The notes below the pieces were generated by a model. It saw only the letters and a list, made by a program, of their open reading frames with translations. It had not been told where the DNA came from and did not search any database. From a virus: a stretch of DNA of 64,000 nucleotides. The translations under genes and the position numbers were made by a program. The stretch lies in UHGV virus genome UHGV-0057186. One strand, 5' to 3'. This document shows positions 5,879 through 43,395 of the stretch, piece after piece; position 1 is the first letter of the stretch, and each line of letters begins with the position of its first letter.

Positions 5879-6161
5879 TCATATCCTCAATTTGCGATCT
5901 AGTAGTCTTCCAAAGAATACTGATGAGTTCATCGTTATATGGCTGTTTCAGAATATCCCGACTTTTCTTGATAGCATATTCGTATTGAGCAAAATTATTG
6001 TTTTCAGCTGCGATCTGAGCGTGCTTATAAAGACGATTCAGTTCGCGTTTGTTTTTAGACAATAACTTATTTGCTTTTCTTTCTGCTTCAAGACGGTTCT
6101 TTTCTTCAATAGAAGAAATAAGCTTTTCCACTTCATCATTAATTTCGGGTTTATCAGTCAT
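5844..6161 (-). CDS. Hypothetical protein
   Basis: 105-aa ORF tiled between a-gt and 55. Confidence 0.5.
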   Translation of the reverse strand: MTDKPEINDEVEKLISSIEEKNRLEAERKANKLLSKNKRELNRLYKHAQIAAENNNFAQYEYAIKKSRDILKQPYNDELISILWKTTRSQIEDMIDAYTRKIQAS

Positions 6162-6162
6162 A

Positions 6163-6381
6163 TTATTTCTCTAATATAAAATAAAAATCATCATCTGTTA
6201 AATGATACCGATAGTTTAATTCTACACCATTAGATTTAAAAGCGGTATCATACGGATTTTCTGGATCAATATCAATGTCAAGAGCTAAAACTTCCCTGAG
6301 ATACATTTTAAGTAAATAGGGAATAGCTTCAACTTCAGGTATTTCTTCCAAGAATCCGGAGAGGTTAATCGTTAGCCTCAT
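6163..6381 (-). CDS. Hypothetical protein
   Basis: 72-aa ORF immediately downstream of gene 55. Confidence 0.5.
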
Positions 6382-6922
6382 ATAAAAAATCCAAACTAGG
6401 AGAATCGTCTACAACACTTTTCTTTTCAGCCCCCGGTGTTCTATAGGTTGATTCTTCGTAATGCGTCATTTTATCGTAGATGTCTTGAATAAAAGTTTCA
6501 TCTACTAACGCAACCATATCGTCGTCACGACTGTCATAGACATTGTGAACGAAGTAACTATATTTCTTTGCAACTTCCTTACGTTCTTTTTTAATACGTT
6601 GGACGAATGCATTAAAACAAGCTTGAGTTATATATGCATGTGGGTTTTTATATTTCGTTTCATCAAAATTGTGAAGCCCCTTAATAGAAGCTTCTATACC
6701 ATCTGCAATCATTTCTTGTTTCCAAGACTGGGTGTATCCTGAAAAGTTGAAACGCTTAGATAAGCCTTCTGCAATAAGCATAATGGCTAATCCGATAGTA
6801 TCATTCTGACGAACTACTTTATTTGGGTCTTTATTATTTGCTAATTCTGTTTTCCAATCAATAATAGCTTGTAAAAGCTCTTTATTGTTTACGTAATTAT
6901 ATTTAGGCTTAGTTTCTGACAT
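6365..6922 (-). CDS. 55: Late-transcription sigma factor gp55
   Basis: ORF track start 6928 is GTG; ATG at 6922 preceded by aagaggtgaaa gives 185 aa [33 protein letters not shown]..., matching T4 gp55. Confidence 0.9.
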
Positions 6923-9889: not shown

Positions 9890-10241
9890 ATTTAAGCATT
9901 TCTAGTTGTTTAATATCTTCAAACTTATATCCTGTCCACAACCAAATGCTTTTATTGGGATAAAGATTTTTAATAGTTTGAACCACAGAGTGAATCACGT
10001 CTCTGTTATCAGGATAGAGAGGGTCACCTCCGGTTATAGTCAATCCTTCTATATAATCATTATTCAAACATTCAATTAATTGTTCTAGTGTTTCACCAGT
10101 GAATGGAACACCATTTCTAGCATTCCATGTTGATTTATTATAACACCCTTCACATTTATGCAAACAACCTGTAACGAAAAGAACGGTCCTGCAGCCAGGA
10201 CCATTAACAAAATCGCAAGGATAAAATCTATCATAATTCAT
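9771..10241 (-). CDS. nrdG: Anaerobic ribonucleotide reductase activating protein (radical SAM)
   Basis: 156-aa ORF with CxxxCxxC radical-SAM cluster motif (GCLHKCEGC); 4-nt overlap with nrdD stop. Confidence 0.9.
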   Translation of the reverse strand: MNYDRFYPCDFVNGPGCRTVLFVTGCLHKCEGCYNKSTWNARNGVPFTGETLEQLIECLNNDYIEGLTITGGDPLYPDNRDVIHSVVQTIKNLYPNKSIWLWTGYKFEDIKQLEMLKYVDVIIDGKYEKNLPTKKLWRGSDNQRLWSNTDGVWTHD

Positions 10242-12055
10242 TGGTGCTTAACCCTATGCATGATTTCTTTATTTTTGCCGAGATTAAATCCGCGTTCGTT
10301 CGGATTTCCCAAATAACCACATGTTCTTCTTATTGTGTTCATCTTTTTAGGATCAGTTTCTCCACAAATAGAACAAACAAATCCGTTTTCAGTAGGAGTC
10401 ATTTCATGGGTACTTCCACATGTAAAACATTTATCTACTGGCATATTAACACCAAAATAATCTAAATGTTGTGCAGCATAATCCCAGACAGCCTCAAGAC
10501 CTTTTAGGTTATTTTTCATATCAGGAAGTTCAACATAAGAAATGTGACCACCTGTCGCAATGAAATGATATGGGGCTTCGCGAGAAATCTTTTCAAACGG
10601 AGTAATATTTTCTTCTACTGAAACATGGAAACTGTTAGTGTACCATCCTTTATCGGTAACATCTTTTACACTTCCATATTTTTCGGTATCAAGTTTACAG
10701 AAGCGATAACAAAGGTTTTCAGCAGGAGTCGAATACAAACTAAAAGCAAACCCAGTTCTTTCAGTCCACTGTTTAAGACGAGCATTCATTTTAGTCAAAA
10801 TTTCTTGTCCAATATCACGACCGACAAGAATATTCAATTCATGAATACCAATGTATCCTAGGGACACTGAACTTCTACCGTTTTTAAATAACTCAATTAT
10901 GTCGTCATCAGGTTTAAGACGAACCCCGAATGCACCTTCTTGGTAAAGAATAGGAGCAACAGTCGCTTTAACTCCTTTTAAGGAATTGATTCTACACATC
11001 AAAGCTTCAAAACACAGATCCATTCGTTCATTGAATAATTCAACAAATTTCTGTTCATTGAATTGTGTTCCAATATAAGAATCTAACGCGATGCGAGGAA
11101 GATTCAGTGTTACAACACCAAGATTATTACGTCCATCAAGAATTTCATTACCAGTCGAATCTTTCCATACGCTCAAGAAACTACGGCAACCCATTGGAGA
11201 AACAGGAATAGATGAACCAGTGATAGCTTTATTGTTCTTAGCTGAAATAATATCAGGATACATTCTTTTGCTTGCACACTCTAGAGCAAGCTGCTTAATA
11301 TCATAGTTCGGATCGTCTTTATAAAGATTAACACCTTCTTCAACGAACATAACAAGCTTAGGGAAAATAGGAGTTATTCCATCACGACCAAGACCTTTAA
11401 TGCGGTTTTTAAGAATTGCCTTCTGAATCATTCGTTCAGTCCAGTCAGTTCCCGTACCAAATGTAATTGTCACAAAAGGCGTTTGTCCGTTTGAACTAAA
11501 GAGAGTATTTACTTCATATTCATAAGCTTGGAATGCGTCATAGACATCTTTTTCTGTCTTAGATTGAGCATAATTCAACGCATCAGCGATTTGCCATTTT
11601 TCTGCATCTTCAACATGTTTTGCATAGGTGCGTTTAACATAAGGAGAAAGAACTTTATCGACATTCGCAAATGTAGTTCCGCCATACTGATGTGAAGCAA
11701 CCTGTGCAGTAATTTGTGCCATAATTGCAGTAGCAACGCCAATTGATTTAGGAGTTTCAATCTGCGCATTACCAAGCTTAAATCCGTTCTCAAGCATTCC
11801 TTTTAAATCTACTAAACAGCAATTAGTAAAAGGCAATGATATACTGTAATCTAAATCATGAAAATGAATTAATCCAACATTATGGGCATTTACAATATGA
11901 CTTGGAAGAATACGACAAGCGATATGTTTAGAAACAATACCGGCCATTAAATCTCTTTTTGTTGGAAAGACGCGAGAATCTTTGTTGGCGTTTTCTGTAT
12001 TTAATTCTTTATCTTTATTTGAAATAAAATTTAAAACATCTTTTTCTAAAGACAT
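10238..12055 (-). CDS. nrdD: Anaerobic ribonucleoside-triphosphate reductase NrdD, uninterrupted (no intron)
   Basis: 605-aa continuous ORF; C-terminal glycyl-radical motif RRTCGYLG and Zn-ribbon CFTCG...CSICG. Confidence 0.92.
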   Translation of the reverse strand: MSLEKDVLNFISNKDKELNTENANKDSRVFPTKRDLMAGIVSKHIACRILPSHIVNAHNVGLIHFHDLDYSISLPFTNCCLVDLKGMLENGFKLGNAQIETPKSIGVATAIMAQITAQVASHQYGGTTFANVDKVLSPYVKRTYAKHVEDAEKWQIADALNYAQSKTEKDVYDAFQAYEYEVNTLFSSNGQTPFVTITFGTGTDWTERMIQKAILKNRIKGLGRDGITPIFPKLVMFVEEGVNLYKDDPNYDIKQLALECASKRMYPDIISAKNNKAITGSSIPVSPMGCRSFLSVWKDSTGNEILDGRNNLGVVTLNLPRIALDSYIGTQFNEQKFVELFNERMDLCFEALMCRINSLKGVKATVAPILYQEGAFGVRLKPDDDIIELFKNGRSSVSLGYIGIHELNILVGRDIGQEILTKMNARLKQWTERTGFAFSLYSTPAENLCYRFCKLDTEKYGSVKDVTDKGWYTNSFHVSVEENITPFEKISREAPYHFIATGGHISYVELPDMKNNLKGLEAVWDYAAQHLDYFGVNMPVDKCFTCGSTHEMTPTENGFVCSICGETDPKKMNTIRRTCGYLGNPNERGFNLGKNKEIMHRVKHQ

Positions 12056-12867
12056 AATTCTAATTTATCCTTTTGAAATTCTTCGTCTAAATATGGGTTC
12101 CAACCCATTTTAAACCTTTTGATGAAATTATCAATTCTAAATTTTGGTAAGTTTAAATCCGCAAAAATAGATGATTTACTTTTAAAATCTGGACTTAAAT
12201 AATCATATAAAATTTCTGCGTATTTTAACCATAATATACAAGTACCAGATTTAATTGCTCTCGGAGTTTTCCAAGGTTTTACACCATACATCGGATTTCC
12301 ACTTCCTTTATGCCTGATAGAAGATGAAATTCCAATTTTAATTTTAGCTTCCTTTGTATGCGAAAATCCACGATGCGGATTTTCTTTCCAGTATTTTTTA
12401 GAAGCTTCTGATATTTTCTTTCTGGCTAAATTAGTATGATGCTTTCCATAAAATCCATGATTTTTGCCTTTATTACGATTTCTTTTAATCATGGTTATTG
12501 ATTGCTTTTCTCTAGTTTCTTTAGAAGGAGAAACACCGTACGTTGTAAATTGACCATCAGCATATGCTAAATTAAAATACTCTTTATTCCATACATCTTT
12601 TTCTATATTCTTTTGAAATTCAGCTTCAATGCTAGTTATTTGTTCATCTCCGACTAATTGAAAATATAATATTTCAACTTTCGGCGTTTCTTTCAACAGG
12701 GCTTTTTGAAATTCGGAAGATGACGAAGACGAATAATAAAATTTACCATTTTTATCAATAATATTCGTTCCGTCAAAAGTGCAATTAGTTTTACTTCCAA
12801 TGTAATAATATGGCGGGGTTTTAGCATTAATTCTATTAATAAATGATAGTTTATATACTACATTCAT
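12046..12867 (-). CDS. Free-standing GIY-YIG homing endonuclease (Seg-like)
   Basis: 273 aa; N-terminal VYKLSFINRINAKTPPYYYIGSKTN (GIY...YIG), downstream NUMOD-like repeats (GKNHGFYGKHHT, GFSHTKEAKIKIGISSS, GSGNPMYG); 10-nt overlap with nrdD start. Confidence 0.75.
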   Translation of the reverse strand: MNVVYKLSFINRINAKTPPYYYIGSKTNCTFDGTNIIDKNGKFYYSSSSSSEFQKALLKETPKVEILYFQLVGDEQITSIEAEFQKNIEKDVWNKEYFNLAYADGQFTTYGVSPSKETREKQSITMIKRNRNKGKNHGFYGKHHTNLARKKISEASKKYWKENPHRGFSHTKEAKIKIGISSSIRHKGSGNPMYGVKPWKTPRAIKSGTCILWLKYAEILYDYLSPDFKSKSSIFADLNLPKFRIDNFIKRFKMGWNPYLDEEFQKDKLELCL

Positions 12868-31812: not shown

Positions 31813-32193
31813 TCAATTAGAAAATAAATTTATCCAAGATTGTTCTTTAATTAAAAATGGCTCAGAATCATATGCCATTAAACTCTGTGTGATTAGTCCT
31901 TTAAAAGGCCCATCAATAAATTCCATGGTAAAATATGGAATTTTATTCATTAGCCGTGCATTAGGAGCAGTACACAAAACTCTGCATCCTTTGAATACGC
32001 CTTTTTGTAATTTGTATTGCTTAGGATAAAATTCGCTCAAGACGTTGTTATTTGCCAAAATTTCAAAATGATTCACCAATTTATTTTTAATAGTTTTTGG
32101 CGAAAAATAAAGATATTCGAAAAGCTGAGTGTCTGTCATCATTGCATTCCGATTACGAAAAACTGTGGACGAGTAATACCACCAATGCAACAT
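31813..32193 (-). CDS. Hypothetical protein
   Basis: 126-aa ORF; start probably internal. Confidence 0.4.
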
Positions 32194-32726
32194 TTAATAT
32201 TACAGCAGCAGTGTACAGTGTCAATATGGACACTATAAATCTTATCCATATCAGGAGATTTGACAGGCTCATCAATTATATACAAAATTCGCGAAAGCGA
32301 TAAACCTCTGAACTTGCTTCCTTTATTACCGATAAAACTGCGCACAGAATCAGTAAATAAACGAAAACGTATATCATCGCTAGAATAACGAGAAAATTCC
32401 TTTTTAATGTTATTTGCAGAAATTTTAGCGTAAGCTGAAGTATTAGAAAGAACAATAACTGTTCCGCCATCATACAACCAATTAGCAGCAAAGTTAGTCA
32501 CAGCAATTGATTTACCAGATTGACGTCCACCATCTAGTCGAAGTGTGCAGTACTGTTTAAGTAATTCTTCAAATGGCGGGATATAATCGTTTTTACAAAT
32601 TTCTTCTACTCTAGCATCAGAATGGTGTGTAAAAGCATTCATCAGGGATAGATAAGGACCAGTTAAAAATGTTCTCATTTTATTCTCTCTAAATTTGGGC
32701 CATTCCATGGCGCATGAATTGTCCAT
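32139..32726 (-). CDS. P-loop NTPase-like protein
   Basis: 195 aa; GGRQSGKS Walker A-like and LYIIDEP Walker B-like. Confidence 0.45.
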   Translation of the reverse strand: MDNSCAMEWPKFRENKMRTFLTGPYLSLMNAFTHHSDARVEEICKNDYIPPFEELLKQYCTLRLDGGRQSGKSIAVTNFAANWLYDGGTVIVLSNTSAYAKISANNIKKEFSRYSSDDIRFRLFTDSVRSFIGNKGSKFRGLSLSRILYIIDEPVKSPDMDKIYSVHIDTVHCCCNIKCCIGGITRPQFFVIGMQ

Positions 32727-32831
32727 TTCTGTATTTACCCATTACCGCACTTGGGCTCGACCTTATTACAGGTTGGCGGGAATCCCTCATAGAATCATGA
32801 GGTCCAGCTTGTTCCCATATTTCTTATTTGC

Positions 32832-33305
32832 TTATTTGAATGATTTGACGTACTGAATAGAACCTTTACTATTCACGAAAGCGATTTTACCATTTTTATT
32901 ATACATGGTAGCAGTACGCTGATAGCCATAAGTTTGTTTACCAGATTGATAACCAACTAATGCGAAATTATCTTCACCCATTTTATTCTGTTTAGCGCGA
33001 ATACGTTCATGACCGTGTGCCATAAGAACCTTAGCATCACCAGTTGAAATTGATCTACGAGTTTTTTCATCTTCAACTGTATTAACAAAGTCGTCAAATG
33101 AATCAAATTTAGCATGGGATTTATTATACAGTTTTCCATCTACTGCATAATTATATCCCTGTACATCCATCTCAACTTCTGTACCATCATCCAATACAGC
33201 AGTAATTTTTTGACCTTTTTTAAATTTCAAAAGATCAGTAAAAGATTCAGCAATAATTTGAGAATTAATAGCTGCTTCAGTGATAAATTCTTGATATGTT
33301 TTCAT
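32832..33305 (-). CDS. Internal (capsid-targeted) protein, 157 aa
   Basis: N-terminus MKTYQEFITEA is the T4 capsid-targeting sequence with LxE prohead-protease site. Confidence 0.65.
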   Translation of the reverse strand: MKTYQEFITEAAINSQIIAESFTDLLKFKKGQKITAVLDDGTEVEMDVQGYNYAVDGKLYNKSHAKFDSFDDFVNTVEDEKTRRSISTGDAKVLMAHGHERIRAKQNKMGEDNFALVGYQSGKQTYGYQRTATMYNKNGKIAFVNSKGSIQYVKSFK

Positions 33306-33361
33306 ATGTTTCCTTTAAATGTAAATATTTTTGCCGTAATACTTGTACCAGTGTGGCTTCA

Positions 33362-33730
33362 TTAAAATTTTTCATCGAGTCGTTGTTGACTCAATTTAAT
33401 AGCTGATTTGCATGGATTATAATCATTTTTCCATTCTGCTGGAATATCGCTGATGTCAGGAACTTCAGTATCTTTTATACTAAACCCACGTTTTAAGCAT
33501 TCCGTTATAATGTCTGATTGACGCTTTCGCAAAAATTCTAACTTATCGTAAAAGAACGTAACATGACCAGAGCCTAAAATAAACTCGGAAGATATTTTAA
33601 AATCTTTAACCCGCTTACCATTTGCCACATGTTTACGAACTATACCAAAAACACGCGGCAATTCACGATACTCAGCCATAAGATGTTGGTCGGTCAGTTC
33701 AGAAACAAGTGTTAAATTGATACGAGTCAT
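33362..33730 (-). CDS. denV: Endonuclease V (pyrimidine-dimer DNA glycosylase), C-terminus lost by apparent -1 frameshift
   Basis: [29 protein letters not shown]... from ATG 33730 (RBS ggagga); ends ...QQRLDEKF*, while [15 protein letters not shown] is in the +1 frame at 33315..33362. Confidence 0.8.
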
Positions 33731-33757
33731 AATTTCCTCCAAGTAGTTGATGAATGT

Positions 33758-33788: not shown

Positions 33789-35029
<1,241 letters not shown>

Positions 35030-35048
<19 letters not shown>

Positions 35049-39078: not shown

Positions 39079-39402
39079 TCAAAAGTTCTTTAAGAATTGC
39101 TTCATACCTAGAGATAATTCCTTTAGCAATATTTTTTCTTGTGCTGCTTTAGGGTCAGCCTTAGGAGCAGGTTTACCAGAAGGTTTTTCGAAAGCCGCGC
39201 CAGTAGCAACCAGGCTTTTCCAGGCGGTGGTAACATAGTTACCCACAAAGCCTTCAGCTCTCATATCGTCGTAGAACTTGTACCGAGATTCGTCAGAAGC
39301 ATCTTTATAAGAATATTTACCAGCTTTAATAGCAGCAGTTGCTACAGCGCGAACATCTGAAGCGGATGCTTCGGTCATTAAAAATTGAGCATAAGTTTTC
39401 AT
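39079..39402 (-). CDS. Internal (capsid-targeted) protein, IPI-like
   Basis: 107 aa; N-terminus MKTYAQFLMTEA capsid-targeting sequence; late promoter and RBS aggaaat upstream. Confidence 0.6.
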   Translation of the reverse strand: MKTYAQFLMTEASASDVRAVATAAIKAGKYSYKDASDESRYKFYDDMRAEGFVGNYVTTAWKSLVATGAAFEKPSGKPAPKADPKAAQEKILLKELSLGMKQFLKNF

Positions 39403-42824: not shown

Positions 42825-43058
42825 TTATTTTTTACGAAAAATTGATTTATTTTCTGCTGCCCATTTTTCAATAACTGCAGCAGGACCAGTAACAACAATT
42901 TTATCACCGTAATCTTCTGCGGCGAGTTGACCGAAATTATCTAATGCATCACGAAGAACTCCATGAGGCATTTCACCCATTTTATCTTTCTTGCCGGTGT
43001 AAATAAACTCAACTTTTGCATCAGAAGATTCAGCGATAAATTCTTTGAAAGTTTTCAT
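42825..43058 (-). CDS. Internal (capsid-targeted) protein, 77 aa
   Basis: From ATG 43058: MKTFKEFIAES... capsid-targeting sequence. Confidence 0.55.
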   Translation of the reverse strand: MKTFKEFIAESSDAKVEFIYTGKKDKMGEMPHGVLRDALDNFGQLAAEDYGDKIVVTGPAAVIEKWAAENKSIFRKK

Positions 43059-43124: not shown

Positions 43125-43149
43125 CAACTTTGTGAAATTATTTTAAATC
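43118..43149. repeat. 32-bp perfect direct repeat, copy 1 (gene 3' end + promoter -35 region)
   Basis: atgtaaacaactttgtgaaattattttaaatc identical to 43448..43479. Confidence 0.85.
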
Positions 43150-43395
43150 TTCTAATCGTTTCTTCATCTTAGAACCATTTTTAGCAATTTCTCCTGCATC
43201 GGAGCATAATGCTAAAAGTGCTTTAACTTTAGTTTGGTCTCCTTTAAAAGATGAAGGATCGACTGCAGCAGCAAGTTCTTTAATACGAGAGAAAAGACGC
43301 TCAGCTTCAGCTAAAGCCATTCCAAGCTTTACTTCCATACCGTGAGAAGATTCAGTGATAGTAGTTTTTGTAGCAAACTCTTTGAAAGTTTTCAT
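43138..43395 (-). CDS. Internal (capsid-targeted) protein, 85 aa
   Basis: MKTFKEFATKTTITESS...; central region clearly similar to 33789..34070 product. Confidence 0.55.
   Translation of the reverse strand: MKTFKEFATKTTITESSHGMEVKLGMALAEAERLFSRIKELAAAVDPSSFKGDQTKVKALLALCSDAGEIAKNGSKMKKRLEDLK

Follow-up and report, generated by a model that had tools for sequence, protein, structure and literature searches.

Internal proteins of T-even phages are classic anti-defence proteins that are delivered into the host cell together with the genome. IPI* is an injected inhibitor of GmrSD-CT596 (PMC3012670; PMC9026906), IPIII is needed by T4 on ECOR17 (PMC9391042), and each of Ip1, Ip2 and Ip3 blocks one distinct GmrSD type IV nuclease, with Ip2 acting on GmrSD-ECOR21 and Ip3 on GmrSD-ECOR17 without cross-protection (PMC12373910). 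The families of such proteins number at least ten, a count attributed to Repoila et al. 1994 (PMC12373910). The locus studied here lies in a stretch of 64,000 nucleotides from the virus genome UHGV-0057186, which is referred to as the window in the following, and raises the question whether an open reading frame of 157 codons close to denV, the product of which begins like an internal protein, adds a new cargo to this repertoire and what such a cargo could do in the infected cell. The original prediction, made without database searches, held the gene to be novel, placed it upstream of denV and proposed its product as a candidate injected anti-defence protein.

Identification of the gene as ip4

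The reading frame is present on the minus strand as claimed (32832..33305), starts with ATG and ends with TAA after 157 codons. According to the ORF list and the sequence, the product has the N-terminus MKTYQEFITEAA; its opening residues are also given as MKTYQEFITEAAINSQIIAES in the translation of 32832..33305 on the minus strand. The ribosome-binding site AAAGGAAAC (33308..33316, minus strand), which was recognized in the sequence and by alignment with the phages Kha5h, ime09, Bas42 and T4, is a good match to the Shine-Dalgarno sequence and its end is located 5 bases from the start codon. That the frame is under strong purifying selection is evident from codon comparisons; in the three with the greatest divergence, synonymous and non-synonymous differences number 16 and 1 for T2, 21 and 2 for Bas44 and 13 and 1 for Bas42.

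Database comparisons left little room for novelty. The protein matches the Pfam family DUF7412 (PF24183) with 318.2 bits at a cut-off of 27 (E=1.3e-95), residues 1-157 aligning with profile positions 1-158, and PHROG 3155, 'internal virion protein', with 338.6 bits (E=1e-101). A T2 protein annotated as ipIV (NC_054931) and the proteins designated 'Ip4' in RB14 and 'Ip4 protein' in AR1 are each 99.4% identical to that of the window, and the names Ip4 or ipIV are carried by 99-100% identical proteins in T2, RB14, AR1, Kha5h and ime09. The Kha5h record uses ipIV with the depositor's remark 'similar to RB51 RB70 RB32 RB14 and T2L', and the ime09 record uses Ip4. More generally, the T-even Ip4/IpIV proteins of T2, K3, RB14, RB32 and AR1 share with the window an amino acid identity of 98-100%, the length of 157 residues, the leader and the locus. 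It is therefore virtually certain that 32832..33305 is the Ip4 gene of the DUF7412 family, a named gene of T-even phages and not a new one, and the claim of novelty has to be withdrawn. A clear orthologue among characterized internal proteins had been named as counter-evidence to the original prediction; this applies only in part, as Ip4 is named and catalogued but functionally uncharacterized. The gene, its name and the anti-defence hypothesis are all already published. In our literature search, no open paper linking 'Ip4' with T-even or T4-like phages was found and the matches were otherwise papers on inositol phosphates.

Genetic environment and transcription

The window originates from a Tequatrovirus. 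A locus of 2.5 kb around Ip4 is 100% identical to that of Escherichia phage vB_Eco_EL and 98-99.8% identical to those of slur03/08/14, Kha5h and ime09. All genes of the region lie on the minus strand and follow each other, in the order of transcription, as nudE (34593-35048), e for lysozyme (34067-34555), a gene for a leader-bearing internal protein of 93 amino acids, here termed IP93 (33789..34070; PHROG 3499, 'internal head protein', 1.4e-46), denV for endonuclease V (33362..33742; Pfam Pyr_excise, PHROG 1183), Ip4 and vs.8. Ip4 is thus located directly 3' of denV and, in terms of transcription, downstream of it, so that its position had originally been described the wrong way round.

Gene order between e and vs.8 differs from phage to phage. 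It is e-ipIII-ipII-denV-vs.8 in T4, e-Ip4-vs.8 in T2 and Bas44, e-denV-Ip4-vs.8 in Bas42 and e-IP93-denV-Ip4-vs.8 in the window. While ipIV of T2 directly follows e, its counterpart in the window is preceded by a frameshifted denV, and the locus there also encodes the 93-amino acid internal protein. Compared with T4, the Ip4 insertion lies precisely between the stop codon of denV and the conserved sequence GGGAACAA(C/G)CTGGACCTCATGATT, which contains the vs.8 start in T4. Where denV is intact in related phages, its stop codon (33315-33317) overlaps the Ip4 ribosome-binding site, as revealed by alignment with Kha5h, ime09, Bas42 and T4. The e-vs.8 region is a variable hotspot for internal-protein cassettes, and Ip4 is one of these cassettes.

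Some peculiarities of the neighboring genes should be mentioned. The A-run at 33368-33372 within denV comprises five adenines in the window and six in Kha5h, ime09, Bas42 and T4, equivalent to a deletion of one nucleotide; as identified by alignment, the resulting frameshift truncates DenV to 122 instead of 138 residues, the protein ending with ...LDEKF and being deprived of WYKYYGK at its C-terminus. The cause may be either a true frameshift or a mistake in sequencing the homopolymer for the source record; in T2 and T4, slippage-prone repeats are reported to act as contingency loci (2025 preprint, PMC12633550). On the other side of Ip4, the first 33 codons of a T4-type vs.8 (MRDSRQPVIRSSPSAVMGKYRNGQF...) form a separate short reading frame in the window (32689-32790, minus strand), the main vs.8 frame (32139-32726, minus strand) being another one that is read from about MRTFLTGPYL, and in the public annotations of related phages vs.8 starts at differing ATGs, with lengths of 540-660 nt. 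For IP93, the mature form of which has a pI of about 6.3, the ORF list gives an extension to a TTG start at 34085. The ATG of IP93 overlaps the TGA of e (ATGA), and this arrangement suggests that its translation may be coupled to that of e.

Two tandem T4 late-promoter boxes TATAAATA, both exact matches, are located upstream of e (34569-34576 and 34582-34589, minus strand) and represent the nearest consensus late promoters able to transcribe e-IP93-denV-Ip4. Late-promoter boxes with zero or one mismatch were not present in the intergenic regions between the e promoters and Ip4; three boxes with one mismatch occur at the start codon of e and within the coding sequences of e and Ip4. A late or MotA-type promoter serving Ip4 itself was also considered, and rejected as none was found in front of the gene. 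Terminator-like sites were absent from the minus strand between 32000 and 35200. A structured RNA or terminator 3' of Ip4 was likewise discarded: the hairpin present there has a folding z-score of -0.12, and the corresponding region of T4 is the vs.8 start. As no terminator intervenes and the promoter arrangement of the window is identical to those for ipIII and ipII in T4, the products of which are abundantly packaged, and for ipIV in T2, it is reasonable to assume that Ip4 is co-transcribed late from the e promoters. In line with established T4 biology, its transcript would then appear late together with those of e, IP93 and denV.

Capsid-targeting leader and predicted processing

Residues 1-10 of Ip4, MKTYQEFITE (33276..33305, minus strand), resemble the leader of T4 IPII and IPIII and close with a candidate site for the prohead protease gp21, I8-T9-E10. 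Compared with MKTYQEFIAE in the two T4 proteins (taken from NC_000866), nine of ten positions are identical and A9T is the sole difference. In IPIII, residues 1-10 are enough for head incorporation, also of foreign proteins, and mutagenesis has assigned residues 4 and 7 to targeting and residues 8 and 10 to processing, gp21 cutting after Glu in L/I-x-E (PMC9026906). Y4, F7, I8 and E10, and hence every residue with a role defined by mutagenesis in IPIII, are all present in Ip4, and M1, K2, F7 and E10 are invariant in an alignment of 13 family sequences. The assignment of the N-terminus as a T4 capsid-targeting sequence, as originally proposed, therefore stands.

How easily such a match could arise was judged by scanning all six frames of the window with a loose leader pattern. 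It retrieved six ORFs, among them lysozyme e as a false positive. Since the other five start with MKT[YF] and map either to the two known Ip loci or to the interval between them, the likeness of the Ip4 leader is not due to chance and, as far as sequence can tell, it is a bona fide T4-type capsid-targeting sequence with an I-x-E site. In addition to Ip4 and IP93, leader-bearing frames encode proteins of 107 amino acids (MKTYAQFLMTE; 39079-39402, minus strand; PHROG 2280, where no function is assigned), 77 amino acids (MKTFKEFIAE; 42825-43058, minus strand; PHROG 8111) and 85 amino acids (MKTFKEFATKTTITE; 43138-43395, minus strand; PHROG 3499), so that the phage appears to encode five candidate packaged proteins. 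The 85-residue protein and IP93 both belong to PHROG 3499, which means that paralogues with differing types of leader are present in the two Ip loci. Outside these loci, a frame of 273 codons with a NUMOD3 motif (12046-12867, minus strand), probably for a homing endonuclease, adjoins nrdD for anaerobic ribonucleotide reductase (10238-12055) and overlaps the start of the latter by 10 bases.

The leader is followed by a linker, AAINSQIIAE (residues 11-20; 33246..33275, minus strand), at the end of which a second candidate gp21 site, I18-A19-E20, is found. E20 is invariant and an [LIVM]-x-E motif occurs at positions 17-21 in every enterobacterial member of the family, while the linker itself is variable. 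T4 IPI sheds a propeptide of 19 residues (PMC3012670; PMC9026906). Because both E10 and E20 are invariant and IPI loses 19 residues, we infer by analogy that Ip4 may be processed at E20 as well, either in two steps or alternatively, as in IPI. The mature part of Ip4 is free of internal L/I-x-E, which is not significant in itself as shuffling yields P(0)=0.61. Taken together, the leader makes it very probable that Ip4 is directed to the prohead, cleaved by gp21 and injected. The targeting sequence of ten residues would dock on the prohead's scaffolding core of gp22, gp21 would cut behind E10 and, probably, a second time behind the invariant E20, and the released protein would remain in the DNA-filled head until it is ejected into the cell along with the DNA.

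Distribution of Ip4 and its homologues

Among 50,697 phage records, tblastn detected Ip4 in 471. Identity was at least 95% in 307 records, namely those from phages of Escherichia, Shigella, Yersinia and Citrobacter. The 2.5-kb locus as a query matches 855 phage records, compared with the 471 for Ip4. Homologues of 60-71% identity occur in phages of Klebsiella, Salmonella and Serratia. An Ip4 homologue from the Klebsiella phage vB_Kpn_AM_K5 (P0014) has 184 residues, departs completely from the Ip4 sequence past residue ~134 and has the look of a frameshifted or chimeric product.

DUF7412 accounts for only 14-16 clusters among 5.8 billion clustered proteins, and an exhaustive profile search of 1.84 billion representatives returned seven matches, three of which are homologues from metagenomic contigs with about 35% identity to Ip4. 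One of the ~35% identical homologues is flanked by Acb1/57B and vs/rI in an accessory region of T4-like type; a locus for a distant homologue with ~35% identity was mapped to positions 6001-6561 of the metagenomic contig ERR6050427_5810. Close relatives of these distant proteins were not seen among isolated phages. Their N-termini, MNFEQFLNES, MNFKDFLNES...LNES and ..FSLNES, all retain L-N-E sites at their ends. The distant homologues (P0015, P0016 and P0017, from uncultured T4-like phages) thus bear a variant leader of the type MNFEQFLNES/MNFKDFLNES and not MKTYQEF. As called, P0017 comprises 186 residues with an N-terminal extension of 35 residues, probably owing to a wrong start.

Conservation over such distances bears on the proposal that the Ip4 leader is vestigial, the protein being made and left unpackaged, or that the reading frame is a decaying cassette without function. 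It would agree with this proposal that our literature search retrieved no virion proteomics or cleavage data for Ip4 and that the gene has no late promoter of its own, the latter being equally true, however, for the abundantly packaged products of T4 ipII and ipIII. With strong purifying selection on the gene, with leader residues and both Glu sites invariant across homologues of 60-99% identity and with L-N-E still present near the N-terminus of the ~35% identical metagenomic proteins, we consider such decay highly improbable.

The Ip4 carrier lineages sampled all have dCMP hydroxymethylase (gp42), as illustrated by Klebsiella phages with 135 Ip4 records versus 137 gp42 records and by the Salmonella phages Melville and STP4-a and Klebsiella phage 15882-1, which were matched in both searches. 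The phage of the window also encodes an alpha-glucosyltransferase.

Properties and fold of the mature domain

The predicted mature cargo domain (residues 21-157; 32835..33245, minus strand) has a mass of 15.5 kDa and a pI of 9.3 and contains neither Cys nor Trp. With 22 Lys and Arg in 137 residues it is basic and small, as are IPI*, IPII and IPIII. When the whole protein was modelled by AlphaFold together with 13 close homologues, the result was unusable (pLDDT 54), whereas trimming of the propeptide and addition of two homologues of 35% identity resulted in a model of the mature domain with a pLDDT of 93. Its sole significant neighbor in BFVD is UniProt Q38388, 'Ip4 [Enterobacteria phage K3]' (TM 0.98, 98% identity). 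None of the solved structures resembled the model and no match to an enzyme-like fold was obtained; scans with NCBIfam and PADLOC gave sub-threshold noise only, and Pfam, fold, NCBIfam and PADLOC searches together did not reveal any enzymatic motif. According to the model, the mature domain is a compact alpha/beta orphan fold without a functional clue. Its invariant polar residues are K58, N61, K62, N107, K108, Q120, Y128 and T131. Two apparent relatives were rejected, both as repeat artefacts that trace back to a single beta-hairpin: the PDB sequence match 7on6, a designed Kelch-like repeat protein, and an RTX/Big_13 adhesin of 1879 residues (P0019) with eight matches to profile positions 36-55.

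The original prediction had been unable to recognize IPI, IPII or IPIII in the portion following the leader, and our comparisons bear this out. BLASTP did not produce any match between mature Ip4 and T4 IPI, IPII, IPIII or the neighboring 93-residue protein, and hhalign no significant similarity. In profile-sequence comparisons by hhalign, the leader alone aligned with IPII, a stretch of 33 columns aligned with IPIII at 32% probability, and the leader plus about 30 residues aligned with IPI at 62% probability. A weak match to PHROG 4363, the IPI family, was also noted in the PHROG scan (E=0.007). When propeptides were removed and family profiles were used on both sides, the alignment with IPI comprised 48 columns with 29% identity, a probability of 1.3% and P=0.038; we regard this as not significant and rejected it as support for homology of Ip4 and IPI. 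Neither profile nor fold similarity placed mature Ip4 in the IPI family (PF11634, IPI* fold). What Ip4 has in common with IPI/IPI* is a propeptide of ~19-20 residues ending with I-x-E, a small basic mature protein, the nature of an accessory cassette in an Ip hotspot and, weakly, the first ~48 mature residues with the motif K..KG..K...L.DG.E....V. IPII and IPIII resemble Ip4 in the leader (9/10), the e-denV-vs.8 hotspot, the presumed late transcription from the e promoters and the basic character, but show no likeness past the leader; IPII, IPIII and Ip4 reside in the separate PHROGs 7857, 5341 and 3155.

A small basic protein inside a head filled with DNA could serve a mainly structural or physical purpose, as a DNA-associated counter-ion and component of the scaffold core that aids assembly, condensation or ejection without a specific host target. 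Such a role finds support not only in the charge of mature Ip4 but also in the contacts of T4 internal-protein lysines with DNA phosphates (PMC3012670), in the slower head assembly of IPIII mutants with a burst of about 40% of normal (PMC9026906), in the T2 e-vs.8 locus, which contains ipIV and neither ipII nor ipIII, so that Ip4 may be the bulk internal protein there, and in the lack of GmrSD inhibition by ip4-10 (PMC12373910). Nevertheless, we judge it improbable, for several reasons. Ip4 is an accessory, mobile cassette that is absent from T4 and found in fewer records than its locus (471 versus 855); a T4 mutant lacking all three internal proteins is viable on standard hosts (PMC9026906); IPIII has a specific anti-GmrSD role despite its assembly phenotype (PMC12373910; PMC9391042); and a well-folded, conserved domain with invariant polar residues suggests specific recognition over charge neutralization.

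Considerations on the function of Ip4

For an action of Ip4 on type IV restriction systems, a precedent apart from Ip1, Ip2 and Ip3 is provided by Bas37_0260, an internal protein of phage Bas37 that is recognized by the same N-terminal leader and, like Ip4, is absent from T4. It has been shown to be an anti-restriction protein that inhibits McrBC (bioRxiv 10.1101/2025.11.20.689424) and differs from Ip4 in being encoded at the ipI locus. It exemplifies what a functional assignment of Ip4 could resemble.

Tests of the kind originally suggested have been published and are the sole functional data on record; their outcome was negative. In a 2025 study, ten ip genes were combined with newly found active GmrSD systems and no new inhibitory interaction emerged; apparent interactions of ip4-10 in Supplementary Figure 9 were not reproducible (PMC12373910), 'ip4' of that study being equated with Ip4 by the shared name alone. 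Furthermore, T2 is restricted by GmrSD-CT596, GmrSD-ECOR21 and GmrSD-ECOR17 (PMC12373910), the last two being the targets of Ip2 and Ip3, which T2 lacks. As T2 is a natural carrier of ipIV, we infer that none of these three variants is the target of Ip4. On the other hand, the diversity of GmrSD far exceeds the 15 groups sampled, eight of which were active (PMC12373910). The proposal of an injected anti-defence protein thus coincides with the current view in the field, based on Ip1-3 and Bas37_0260, and is not backed by reproducible GmrSD inhibition in the case of ip4-10.

These same results invite the alternative that Ip4 acts as an injected effector on a target outside the type IV nucleases, such as BREX-associated, Druantia, Septu or Mokosh-type systems, exonucleases, or host functions subject to take-over. 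The negative outcome for ip4-10 on the GmrSD panel and the restriction of T2 despite ipIV (PMC12373910) point in this direction, as does the orphan fold, unrelated to IPI*; moreover, the example of Alt, a leader-processed head protein that ADP-ribosylates RNA polymerase, illustrates that packaged proteins are not all nuclease inhibitors (PMC9026906). Yet all small leader-bearing internal proteins with a known target (Ip1, Ip2, Ip3 and Bas37_0260) hit type IV systems, Ip4 is found in lineages of phages with hydroxymethylcytosine (hmC), neither an enzymatic fold nor an enzymatic motif is apparent and the GmrSD groups that have been sampled are a small part of the existing diversity, and on balance we regard this alternative as rather unlikely.

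We favor the explanation that Ip4 is a cassette protein that is packaged, processed and injected and inhibits a host defence directed against glucosyl-hmC DNA, and consider this account as a whole moderately probable. By analogy with the characterized internal proteins, Ip4 itself is fairly likely to be an anti-defence inhibitor. Once ejected into the cell, the compact basic protein of ~15.5 kDa with its orphan alpha/beta fold would act, as we propose with moderate to low confidence, as a stoichiometric inhibitor of a first-line defence that attacks the incoming glucosyl-hydroxymethylcytosine DNA. The leading candidate for its target would be a modification-dependent (type IV) nuclease variant outside those tried so far. 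The idea of a type IV target builds on the analogy with Ip1-3 and Bas37_0260 and fits the hmC lineages and the alpha-glucosyltransferase; it is put forward tentatively, as somewhat less likely than not.

A further reading, which we regard as possible though somewhat doubtful, is that Ip4 is injected, has an orphan fold and inhibits a defence that no one has so far connected with the internal proteins of T-even phages, be it a class of modification-dependent nuclease outside those sampled or a non-restriction defence. If this were true, the target would be widespread among Enterobacteriaceae, unlike the strain-specific targets of Ip1-3, since conservation of Ip4 extends from phages of Escherichia and Shigella through hmC phages of Klebsiella, Salmonella and Serratia to metagenomic T4-like phages.

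Significance

Internal proteins with targets now number four, all of them directed against type IV restriction systems, and at least six named families including Ip4 are still orphans. Within this group, Ip4 is among the more widespread, being found in T2 and roughly half of the sequenced relatives at the e-vs.8 locus. To what has been published, the present analysis adds a confident model of Ip4 that resembles no known fold, a second protease site that is conserved, remote homologues from metagenomes in which the leader is altered, the observation that hmC phages are the carriers of Ip4 and the argument that the three characterized GmrSD variants, as they restrict T2, cannot be its target. 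Carriers of Ip4 homologues in Klebsiella, Salmonella and Serratia include therapeutic phages, and knowledge of the Ip4 target would aid the prediction of host range.
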